64,000 nucleotides of DNA from Eledone cirrhosa (taxonomy: Eukaryota), in the NCBI GenBank assembly GCA_964016885.1, contig OZ024742.1, positions 75,640,001 through 75,704,000 on the forward strand, written 5' to 3'. Below the pieces are notes generated by a model, which searched no databases, was not told where the DNA came from, and was given only the letters and a program-made list of their open reading frames with translations. The translations under genes and the position numbers were made by a program. Below are positions 34,233 to 44,691 of this stretch, piece after piece. The number at the start of each line of letters is the position of its first letter. Positions within the stretch are counted from its first letter, which is position 1.

Positions 34233-34335
34233 ATATATATATATATATATATATATATATATATATATATATATATATATATAAAATATTAAACAAATAA
34301 TGAACAAACAATTCCTTATATTAAACAAAAAAAGT

Positions 34336-34488
34336 TCACTATTTAACGATCGTTTCTAGGGTATATATGTGTTATAATTGGTATGCATATTTAACAGATC
34401 TATGTACAAAATTATACAAAATTATACAAATTATCAAGATTAAATATACATACCTAACTCATATATACGCCGTCTTCAGAAATAATGA
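34336..34488 (-). ncRNA. Hammerhead with extended helix II (mirror of 44245-44397)
   Basis: Reverse complement of the right-arm motif. Confidence 0.65.
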
Positions 34489-37400
34489 AGTATATTTATT
34501 GATAATAACAACAATTCAAAATATCAGTTCAAAATTGACCAATGAAAACACAAAGGGTTAAAAGCAGTTTGGTGTGTGTATATACATGTAAAAACCTTAC
34601 ACATATTTTACAATAATGTGTGTATAATTTGTATGTGCATACTAAAAAGATGGATGCAACCACAAAATTTCAAGGTTAATATCTCTGTAAGCTTAATGCG
34701 CTGATAAGATACGCAATGATACTTATGGAGTCAAGCATATAAATATATTTTTTTCATACTCACACATATCAGTATAATCACACATACATGTGCGTATATG
34801 CATAAATATACACATAACCACGAACATACAAACACACACACTCCCCCACTCACATTTCTATATGTGGATATAAAATCATAAGCAAATAGAAATTAAGTCA
34901 CTCACATAAAAACACTGGCACACACATTTCAAGATCAAGATACAGAAATTAGGTGGGAGGGGGGGGGGAGGGGTCAGTATTAGATTGTCAGACCAGACTG
35001 CCTAATATAAATGTATCTATAAATTAAGAAAAATAAAAAAATAAAAACAATAAAATATAATAAATATAATATAATGTACATACACATACAGATATACATA
35101 CACATACATACATGTACGCGCACATAGAGATATCTACACATACATACATACACACATACCTATACAGTCATACGCACACATACATTTACACGAACATACA
35201 CATACACATATAAAAAGATATAAATACACACACACTCACGCGCAACACATACACACATACACATATATATATATATATATATATATATATATATATATAT
35301 ATACACACACACATAGACTCATATATATATATATACATATACATATATATATATATAAACATATATATCCCCACACTCATACCACCATAAATACACATAC
35401 AAACACCCACATGTATATATATATATATATATATATATCCACATACACACACGTACACATATATATATATATACATATATACACATACATATATATTTAT
35501 ATATACACACACATAAAAAACAGACATGCACATATATATATATATATATATATATTTCATTACTCTTATATATACACATAGTATATATACAAACACAACC
35601 TCACTTATACACATATACACATAAGTTATATTACAATAATAATAAAGAATAATATATATATATATATATATATACACATATACATATATACATATATATA
35701 TATATATACATACATACATACACATACATACATACACATAAATATATACATACATAAATACACACATACGAAAAGACATATATTCACACATAGACACCTA
35801 TATACACATATATATATATATATATATATATCTATATATATATATATACATATATATATATATATATATATATACACATACACACACACACACACACACA
35901 GACACACATACACACTCACATATATATATATATATATATATGTGTATGTGAGTGTGCGCAAATACACATATATATACACACACACATACAAACACACACA
36001 AACACATACATATGCATACGTGCACACACACACACATATATCACATAGATACGAAGATAAACATATAAATAGAGAGACATACAAATATATACAGAACCCA
36101 TATACACATACATACAAACACGCATATACATATACATACATATATACACATACATATATTCCTATATACAAGCATACACATACATACACATATATACATA
36201 TACATACACATATACATACCGCACATTCACATACACATACATATATAATACATATATATACATATATATACATACATATGTATGTACGATCATATATACA
36301 CACTCAATCTTACATTCATATTTACATGCTCATATATGTATTTTTATATTTAGAAATAAATACCAAAACCTATATAGACACCCACCTACACATATATTCA
36401 TACATATACGCTTACAAAAACAGATGATAATAGTATGGGGGAAAGGGGGGGTTTGGAGAAGGGGATCAAAGTAAATATATGTTTCAAGAAACATATAATA
36501 TTTTCCGTATCTTAATTCAATGTATGTTCTTACATATTTTCAGTGCTAGGAAATACGAAATCTATGCATCTCAAAACAAAAAAGTATACCATTAATCATA
36601 TGTTAACTAAACCAAAGATAGTCAACATATTGATTTCCAAGGTGTAAATTAGTTAGGTTTATAATATTTGAAGCAGAATTATGAAGTCAAACAGTAGTAG
36701 ATTATTAATTACATTATAACTAAATTAAAGTTAATAACGTTATGGTATCAATATTAGGAGATGAATTTAGTAATAGGGAAAAGAAACCCAAATAAAAATA
36801 AAATAAAGTATTACATCGGTAGTAGCATATAAATTATATGTTAACTAAATTAAAAATTATATATTTATTTCAATAGTATACGTTAATTAGTATATGTTAA
36901 TTAGGTATACAATACATAAAGCAGATATTGTATTTCATCAATAGCATAATATAATTATATGCAAATAAAAATCAAAATTAATACGCATACATATACATAT
37001 ACATACACATACACATACATATACATATACACACATATATATATATATATACATATATATACACATATATACATATATACTCACATAAATATACATACAG
37101 ATACACATAGAACACACACATATACATATACATATAGATATACATATCTTTTTCAAAAAATTGCACAGAATATATTAACTAGGTATATATCCAAAACACA
37201 TCCCATTCTATGATTACATGACATTCTGCAATTCGTCTGTACAAGGATACTAATTTTAAGCAAATTAAAATTAAAGTTTTAGGTTGATTAAAACTAAAAC
37301 CAAATAATAAATATATTTCCAAAATGTATATTAATTAGGTCTATAATACTAAAAATTCTTTCTCCGTCATTGGATACATGATATTATTTTGTTATATTTT

Positions 37401-37628
37401 ATCTGTAAAAGAATTATAATAAAAAAAAAAAAAAAAAATTATAATAAAAGGTTAAAATAAATTAAAATTAATCTATAAATTAAATTACTGAGTATATATT
37501 AGTAATATTTAAAGGTTTTTCAAAATTTATGATTACATAATATTTTCTCATCTGTAATAAAATATTAATTAAATTAAATTTATAGGTTAACTAACATTTA
37601 AATTAAATTAAATTCTAGAATAATGTTA

Positions 37629-43269: not shown

Positions 43270-43436
43270 AACGAAGGAAATGTGGTAAGGAACCAGGTGG
43301 ACCATAACGCACCAAAGTACTCAATACTTGAGGTAGTAGAGTGGGTAATAGGAACCAGTAAGACCCCGACAGCTGAGCTCAAGCCGCCTCGGTCGAGGCG
43401 GCTTGAGCTCAGCTGTCGGGGTCTTACTGGTTCCTA
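43270..43436. mobile_element. Hairpin mini-element copy C, present only in the right palindrome arm
   Basis: Homologous to 26729-26930; the mirror site ~35262-35302 is plain (TA)n. Confidence 0.88.
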
Positions 43437-44244
43437 TATATATATATATATATATATATATATGTGTATGTGTGTATGTGTTGCGCGTGAGTGTGTGTGT
43501 ATTTATATCTTTTTATATGTGTATGTGTATGTTCGTGTAAATGTATGTGTGTGTATGACTGTATAGGTATGTGTGTATGTATGTATGTGTAGATATCTCT
43601 ATGTGCGCGTACATGTATGTATGTGTATGTATATCTGTATGTGTATGTACATTATATTATATTTATTATATTTTATTGTTTTTATTTATTTATTTTTTTA
43701 TTTTTCTTAATTTATAGATACATTTATATTAGGCAGTCTGGTCTGACAATCTAATACTGACCCCTCCCCCCCCCTCCCACCTAATTTCTGTATCTTGATC
43801 TTGAAATGTGTGTGCCAGTGTTTTTATGTGAGTGACTTAATTTCTATTTGCTTATGATTTTATATCCACATATAGAAATGTGAGTGGGGGAGTGTGTGTG
43901 TTTGTATGTTCGTGGTTATGTGTATATTTATGCATATACGCACATGTATGTGTGATTATACTGATATGTGTGAGTATGAAAAAAATATATTTATATGCTT
44001 GACTCCATAAGTATCATTGCGTATCTTATCAGCGCATTAAGCTTACAGAGATATTAACCTTGAAATTTTGTGTTTGCATCCATCTTTTTAGTATGCACAT
44101 ACAAATTATACACACATTATTGTAAAATATGTGTAAGGTTTTTACATGTATATACACACACCAAACTGCTTTTAACCCTTTGTGTTTTCATTGGTCAATT
44201 TTGAACTGATATTTTGAATTGTTGTTATTATCAATAAATATACT

Positions 44245-44397
44245 TCATTATTTCTGAAGACGGCGTATATATGAGTTAGGTATGTATATTTAATCTTGAT
44301 AATTTGTATAATTTTGTATAATTTTGTACATAGATCTGTTAAATATGCATACCAATTATAACACATATATACCCTAGAAACGATCGTTAAATAGTGA
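44245..44397 (+). ncRNA. Type I hammerhead with a helix II of about 115 nt, near the PLE 3' end
   Basis: UCAUUAUUU CUGAAGA CGGCGUAUAUAUG..CAUAUAUACCCUA GAAA CGAUCG UU/AAAUAGUGA; 9-bp helix I, palindromic helix III. Confidence 0.7.
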
Positions 44398-44691
44398 ACT
44401 TTTTTTGTTTAATATAAGGAATTGTTTGTTCATTATTTGTTTAATATTTTATCTTGACTCTGTATACCGTTTATCTTTCACCGAAAGTGGATTTTCATTA
44501 CATCTCTTCTTTCCATGATATCCGGAATACATTGAGTTCTTCATACGGATTGGACACTACCGTAAACTCTTGGTAGATTTATCTACATATATATATATAT
44601 ATATATATATATATATTCATACATATATATATATATATATATATATATATATATATATTCATACATATATATATATATATATATATATATA

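Follow-up and report, generated by a model that had tools for sequence, protein, structure and literature searches.

The window analysed here, a 64,000-nt stretch of Eledone cirrhosa contig OZ024742.1, contains at positions 34281-44589 a palindrome that arose from a single insertion of a young Penelope-like element (PLE) of 6.06 kb into a (TA)n tract. Its parts are as follows, with unit positions referring to the full-length element:

34233..34280, no strand: left (TA)n target tract, read from the sequence; a target-site duplication is inseparable from the tract
34281..39273, minus strand: left arm, a 5'-truncated element (unit positions 950-5923) whose end is the family's fixed untailed site (site A)
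34335..34489, minus strand: mirror of the hammerhead-like fold in the left arm, with coordinates mirrored from the right arm on the strength of arm identity
37629..39273, minus strand: ORF remnant, residues 267-813, with the C-terminal part of the reverse transcriptase (RT), an N/K-rich linker, CxCx5C and a GIY-YIG-type endonuclease
39274..39282, plus strand: 9-nt centre, unit positions 941-949, native element sequence belonging to the right arm only
39274..44589, plus strand: right arm, a 5'-truncated element (unit positions 941-6060) whose end is the fixed tailed site (site B)
39275..40927, plus strand: ORF remnant, residues 264-813, domains as in the left-arm remnant
40928..44452, plus strand: the element's own 3.5-kb microsatellite-rich 3' region, co-linear in other family copies
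43271..43434, no strand: mini-element that inserted later into the right arm, in a TA run, with a ~80-nt tail and ~41-bp inverted arms
44244..44398, plus strand: predicted hammerhead-like three-way fold with a CUGAAGA core, a stem II of ~110 nt, GAAA and a tiny stem III
44453..44589, plus strand: 137-nt tail, bounded by the two fixed end sites and found at a single outer end
44590..44691, no strand: right (TA)n target tract, read from the sequence

The initial annotation placed the palindrome arms at 34281-39273 and 39283-44452 around a 9-nt centre, and these coordinates are borne out by self-BLAST of the window (an inverted self-match of 99% over 34281-44452) and by a global alignment of one arm against the other (5019 matched columns, flank included). 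Inside the arms this alignment contains 8 substitutions and 6 indels, the latter comprising 1-8 nt slips in simple repeats and a single 174-nt insertion (43261-43434) in the right arm only; both the point substitutions and the right-arm-only mini-element reported earlier are thus seen. The extra bases at the right end are also present, but they number 137 nt (44453-44589) rather than the ~130 first given, and they are the family's fixed tail. The 9-nt centre (39274-39282) matches the native plus-strand sequence preceding 39283 in all but one of the 39 other copies listed (38/39), the exception differing by one base, and the join itself is blunt, with 0 microhomology and 0 added bases. That this spacer reads in frame had been taken to make the plus copy the primary one, yet it shows only that the plus arm is 9 nt longer. 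Open frames of 556 and 550 codons, stop to stop, correspond to residues 267-813 and 264-813 of the full 813-aa ORF, in agreement with the ~550 open codons originally ascribed to both arms. The N-terminus and the first RT aspartate motif are missing from both remnants, and because the RT start is absent both copies were dead on arrival. Captured host flank was considered as an origin for the 3.5-kb 3' region and rejected, as the region is common to other family copies. The sole N run of the window (13185-13384) lies 21 kb away from the palindrome.

The complete unit, defined by tandem arrays with a period of ~6.05 kb, measures 6,060 bp and consists, in order, of a 5' UTR, an ORF at 153-2594, the 3.5-kb microsatellite-rich 3' region, the hammerhead-like fold and the 137-nt tail. 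In other copies the 813-aa ORF is whole (YRDD at 346, NIVY..YIG at 691), and by its motifs this single ORF encodes an RT followed by a C-terminal GIY-YIG-type endonuclease, which supports the earlier identification as a Penelope-like element. A Pfam profile search and a PDB sequence search with the ORF gave nothing above cut-off or threshold, respectively, and the Pfam matches of its homologues are weak (RVT_1, E 0.0044; GIY-YIG, E 0.012). Between the RT and the linker (window ~39890-40220) lies an in-frame N/K/T-rich insert of ~100 residues that is absent from most homologues and recalls the N-rich inserts of rotifer Penelope elements (PMC3846280).

The motifs of this protein point to membership in the Hydra clade. 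According to PMC8557442, the diagnostics of that clade are RWK, a change of DKG to DKT, lack of conservation of GxKF/Y, a CxCX5C linker and (TA)n targets, with CxxC and CxH flanking the conserved E and N and with CCHH absent from the endonuclease core. The present ORF has RWR at 37 (RWK or RWR in 8 aligned homologues), DKT at 115, CNCRNKTNC at 673 as a CxCX5C linker, CRLC at 771 and CNH at 799, while GxKF/Y is absent and the endonuclease core is devoid of CxxC; the core contains two cysteines nine residues apart, a pair not conserved in homologues. Each outer end listed for family copies adjoins (TA)n or the next tandem unit, so that the Hydra trait of (TA)n insertion is found at these ends. 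Assignment to Neptune, Nematis or Naiad was rejected on the fit of the motifs to Hydra, and Naiad/Chlamys, with their N-terminal endonuclease, were rejected because the endonuclease motifs here are C-terminal.

The predicted hammerhead-like fold is stable relative to shuffled sequence (z -4.94, with 0/200 shuffles equally stable) and its CUGANGA core occurs once in the whole unit; the tail region folds no better than shuffles (z -0.95). No hammerhead family appeared among 150 of the 173 Rfam matches, and these 150 are miRNA models on simple repeats or the hairpin, all scoring below gathering thresholds. Many short palindromic copies of the large family (~350 + 200 nt; L072-L141, contig C1) begin at unit position 5715-5725, where the hammerhead-like fold has its 5' foot, and their centres all differ. 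This pattern suggests that a short RNA whose 5' end is defined becomes a palindrome anew every time it inserts.

The right-arm mini-element is a member of another, very abundant family, for which a pattern search returned 19,101 exact tail matches. That it might be part of the large element was rejected, given its absence from other copies. Members of this second family sit in (TA)n and have a one-sided tail and variable palindromic centres; the 24 loci read mostly display the same layout in miniature, with a tail at both ends in 1/24 (L203). Further copies lie at 26730-26930, 27540-27760 and 48150-48320 of the window as well as at loci L191-L214, and two copies at 26717-27777 are opposed, tails outward, around other short palindromic units.

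Elsewhere in the window, an older inverted insertion of a related subfamily occupies 48395-54225; its ORF is 84% identical to the young unit, its tailed arm is the left one, its junction lies near 51645 and its arms are ~88% alike in the repeat-rich part. A 1.5-kb inverted structure surrounds a TA tract at 56557-58047 and includes two copies of a hairpin unit of ~170 nt. Other retroelement-like fragments, judged by eye from translations, are located at 1-9800, 24795-25398 and 29959-31881, and include LINE-like RT frames as well as a GIY-YIG-like frame with CxxC at 24795-25124.

In the 3.0-Gb assembly that includes the window, the ORF remnant is present in many near-identical copies; a first look gave 2,667 candidates, 40 of them scored. 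An ORF word has 716 exact matches and a tail word 4,458. The first 100 ORF-word matches include 8 head-to-head pairs no more than 2.7 kb apart, from which a rough extrapolation gives 55-60 long palindromes genome-wide. Central loops are 2-7 nt in 3/8 of these pairs (L105, L140, L181), corresponding by extrapolation to ~20 nearly loop-less palindromes; these figures are loose, as L140 and L181 were fetched with only ~0.85 kb of one arm. The palindrome of the window is not unique in size within the family: others measure 9.9 kb (L105) and 11 kb (the C380 locus), their arms being 99.7% and 99.6% identical, respectively. The locus had been framed as rare and unstable, a view not supported in light of these equal or longer palindromes and of the older one from the related subfamily that persists in the same window.

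Three sets of loci were surveyed for their ends: 31 regions at the best ORF matches, 59 at successive tail matches and 58 at successive ORF matches (both of the latter on contig C1). Counting the window, 87 head-to-head junctions were found. The classifier accepted only minus-then-plus segment chains with a centre gap of at most 120 nt and left out C2a, C5c, L095 and L183, the first three of which, by eye, also have one end of each type. In every inverted insertion with both ends in view (46/46), one end is tailed and the other untailed. The untailed end falls at unit position 5923 (5885-5926 in older subfamilies) and the tailed end at 6060, giving two fixed outer end sites 137 nt apart. Among the ORF-bearing copies, 30/58 have an adjoining inverted arm and about half are without one.

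The reach of the two arms relative to each other is variable. Of the 19 long insertions with both ends seen, 11 have an untailed arm that overshoots the tailed arm on the 5' side by more than 10 nt, 6 have it nested in the tailed arm and 2 have it ending within 10 nt of the tailed arm; when insertions with one end inferred are included (n=23), the counts for untailed further, nested and near-equal are 12, 10 and 1. At L075, L126 and L130 the arms have no overlap at all. The window locus is of the nested kind, with its left arm wholly inside the span of the right arm and a 9-nt loop. The 11/19 non-nested insertions need two primings: folding back a cDNA that started at the tailed end could not produce stretches beyond its own reach, and a cDNA that started at the untailed site would have had no tail available as template.

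Paired arms derive from one source. They carry 0.6 differences per kb (17 comparisons at 13 loci), as opposed to 5.2 per kb between loci (1485 comparisons), and the partner arm is strictly the nearest relative in 30/34 tests. Two of the 4 misses, in this comparison of non-repetitive columns alone, are the window's own arms, which carry several arm-specific changes. Four variant-bearing stretches, in or near simple repeats, are common to the two arms of the window and occur in no other fetched locus, upholding the earlier view of a single insertion from one template.

The initial annotation suggested a survey of turn-around positions and microhomologies across the family. Junction offsets span 0 to 5.9 kb. 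Among 60 'de novo' junctions, a set from which the recurrent 5675-5725 site and L097 were left out, 6 lie within 10 nt of symmetry as compared to 0.57 in shuffles, and 0/20,000 shuffles reach 6; the test is approximate, with loci pooled from three differently chosen sets. This excess implies that, in roughly one insertion in ten, the place where one arm stops is linked to where the other does. Most of the 24 near-symmetric centres are short copies cut at the recurrent site at the foot of the hammerhead-like fold, and 9/24 have 0-2 unpaired bases, too few for the loop of a priming hairpin. Microhomology of at least 3 nt is found in 15/34 insertion-free junctions, versus ~10% by chance, a count inflated by BLAST end-extension that does not separate the models; the window's own centre has none. 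The centres of L080, L086, L187 and G000:C2:154138781-154148780 hold short tandem re-copies of the adjacent arm end in units of 13-19 nt, a sign of repeated re-priming during joining.

We regard it as probable that the palindrome was made by two target-primed reverse transcriptions, one per end of a cut (TA)n tract and likely on the same template. In this scenario, the endonuclease would cut both strands within (TA)n, after which priming would occur on the left at the inner start site (unit 5923) and on the right at the outer one (6060), giving a tail to one end only. Both cDNAs would stop at nearly one point (950 and 941), probably at the 5' end of a broken RNA common to both, and their 3' ends could be joined bluntly through an RT jump or end-joining repair before each arm was made double-stranded. 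Afterwards, the mini-element of the other family would have landed in the right arm and point changes would have accumulated. We infer the double-strand cutting, the single RNA, a dimeric enzyme and the joining step; the 46/46 end rule, the 11/19 non-nested insertions, the non-overlapping arms and the shared private variants are best fitted by priming at both ends, with the surplus of near-symmetric junctions and the nearly loop-less centres (9/24) also on its side. The two RT start sites of the Poseidon-clade relative PAc, determined in vitro (PMC11167929), may by analogy fit the same account. Points against this account are that the window's arms are not each other's strict nearest relatives in non-repetitive columns, that PAc shows no start-site difference between strands (PMC11167929), that one mini-element (L203) is tailed at both ends and that about half of the ORF-bearing copies have no inverted arm beside them. 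The window locus taken alone is, moreover, nested with a 9-nt loop, so a fold-back at the centre fits this locus equally well.

This ambiguity leaves room for an intermediate scenario, possible although we consider it rather unlikely, in which both ends are primed and the long cDNA folds back or switches at its truncation point, its sense copy then being captured by the short cDNA from the other end, so that this end becomes fixed at the second start site. Such a route would account for the fixed ends, the shared private variants and the excess of near-symmetric junctions; the native 9-nt loop of the window is a feasible hairpin loop, and short templated repeats at several centres show local re-priming. 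However, the window's centre has no microhomology, 9/24 near-symmetric centres have just 0-2 unpaired bases, the RT would need to leave the RNA:DNA hybrid to copy its own product, and non-overlapping arms require a direct join anyway. The initial annotation read the left arm as a self-primed fold-back of the cDNA. In this model and its relative from the literature, one-ended self-priming, with either the cDNA or an antisense RNA, would copy back the element, and endonuclease resolution would then set the untailed end; the nested window locus with its native loop is compatible with this, self-priming on an antisense template has been proposed for head-to-head Penelope copies (PMC3846280) and endonuclease resolution has been proposed for the tail (PMC8557442). 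Nonetheless, 11/19 long insertions are non-nested and some arms have no overlap, fold-back leaves the fixed untailed stop site (46/46) unexplained, and tail ends were later matched to in vitro RT start sites (PMC11167929). This is the weakest of the retrotransposition models, and we judge it improbable.

We give very little credence to either of two further explanations. Recombination or inverted duplication of two separate copies, with gene conversion equalising the arms, has a dense family to draw on (716 ORF-word and 4,458 tail-word exact matches), but independent copies would not yield exactly one tail in 46/46, the host flank is not duplicated, and the right-arm insertion and arm-specific changes remain unconverted. 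An assembly or library artefact, such as a fold-back chimeric read, is comparably remote. On its side, neither the centre nor a boundary between unique flank and arm is spanned by any independent read or contig, an observation that is non-decisive as it comes from short-read runs, which may not carry the window's allele and whose left-junction reads are cut at the TA run; at the centre, loose read ends at 39274 carry the normal upstream element sequence of other copies. Against it, a folded-back read would mirror the tail, the mini-element and the flank, none of which is mirrored, and the left arm meets its own flank at the family's fixed site. The 8 substitutions and 174-nt insertion between the arms, the native centre and the absence of any gap within 21 kb likewise disfavour an artefact, so that the earlier argument from arm differences against a chimeric read stands.

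Returning to two-ended priming, we incline slightly to a broader reading in which a dimeric RT-endonuclease uses a single RNA to prime the two ends of a break, always one end per start site, and joins the cDNAs, making multi-kb near-perfect palindromes a routine by-product, several dozen of them in this genome and possibly ~20 nearly loop-less, that is tolerated in an animal germ line. If this is true, the family is a genome-scale record of how PLE head-to-head inversions form. The formation of tandem and inverted PLE copies is named as an open question in PMC8557442, and the answer is narrowed down by the rule of a single tail, by arms that are not nested and by private variants common to paired arms, all of which favour two-ended priming over self-priming. 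The palindrome itself is a known PLE product, and the value of the family lies in the statistics that a young, high-copy element provides. Dozens of natural 10-kb palindromes of differing ages also offer material on repeat instability or double-stranded RNA; hairpin RNA would need read-through across the centre, because both arms have lost their 5' ends and neither retains a pseudo-LTR upstream. A look-up of read sets listed no RNA run with this sequence, a result that says nothing about expression. Full-text searches of a literature collection with few subscription journals listed no paper whose title or opening of the abstract puts forward two-ended priming for the inverted PLE copy, and passages of a retrozyme preprint (10.64898/2026.07.22.740005) add nothing on inversion.

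With the Hydra clade of C-terminal-endonuclease PLEs as described in PMC8557442 (Craig et al. 2021), this family shares RW[K/R], DKT, the lack of GxKF/Y, CxCX5C, (TA)n insertion and a single RT-EN ORF. Its unit is 6.06 kb long, double what is usual for Hydra elements, which are generally <3 kb, a length that is descriptive and not diagnostic, and unlike them it has the 3.5-kb microsatellite-rich 3' region and an N/K-rich insert of ~100 residues after the RT (PMC8557442). The predicted hammerhead-like fold has a very long stem II, in contrast to the canonical hammerhead of Hydra (PMC8557442); PMC4209133 describes PLE hammerheads in which helix III is tiny and palindromic and stem II is preceded by an unpaired base, and the fold here resembles these except for its far longer stem II. 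Typical PLE insertions consist of partial tandems beside which lies an inverted, 5'-truncated copy, and one of their ends bears a tail of 30-40 bp (PMC8557442). Head-to-head inversions with palindromic junctions, for which self-priming was proposed, are reported in PMC3846280. The present family displays this layout, with tandems (pseudo-LTRs), inverted 5'-truncated arms and a single tail in every insertion with both ends in view, and it thus shares with the standard form (PMC8557442, PMC3846280) the head-to-head copy, the one-end tail, the tandems elsewhere and the palindromic junctions, but its tail is 137 nt and its arms are 5 kb and nearly symmetric.

The Poseidon-clade element PAc from Anolis cuts and extends both strands in vitro, its RT starts at two internal sites that bracket the tail, and a dimer is predicted (PMC11167929; Frangieh et al. 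2024). Both systems have two fixed end sites bracketing the tail, an AT-rich target and extension of both strands, the last being probable in the present family, although PAc is of a different clade and its tail lies within the start of the ORF, whereas here it precedes the 5' UTR of the next unit (PMC11167929). PMC11167929 reports no difference between strands in start site, so the strict one-tail rule is unexplained by the PAc data, and the available sections of that paper put forward no model of the inverted copy. The head-to-head layout itself has already been described for Penelope-like elements. In the twin priming of L1, the second target strand primes on the same RNA and an inversion results, with arms that are not known to overlap and a second site that is arbitrary. 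By comparison with L1 twin priming, the second start in the present family is fixed and the arms duplicate each other.
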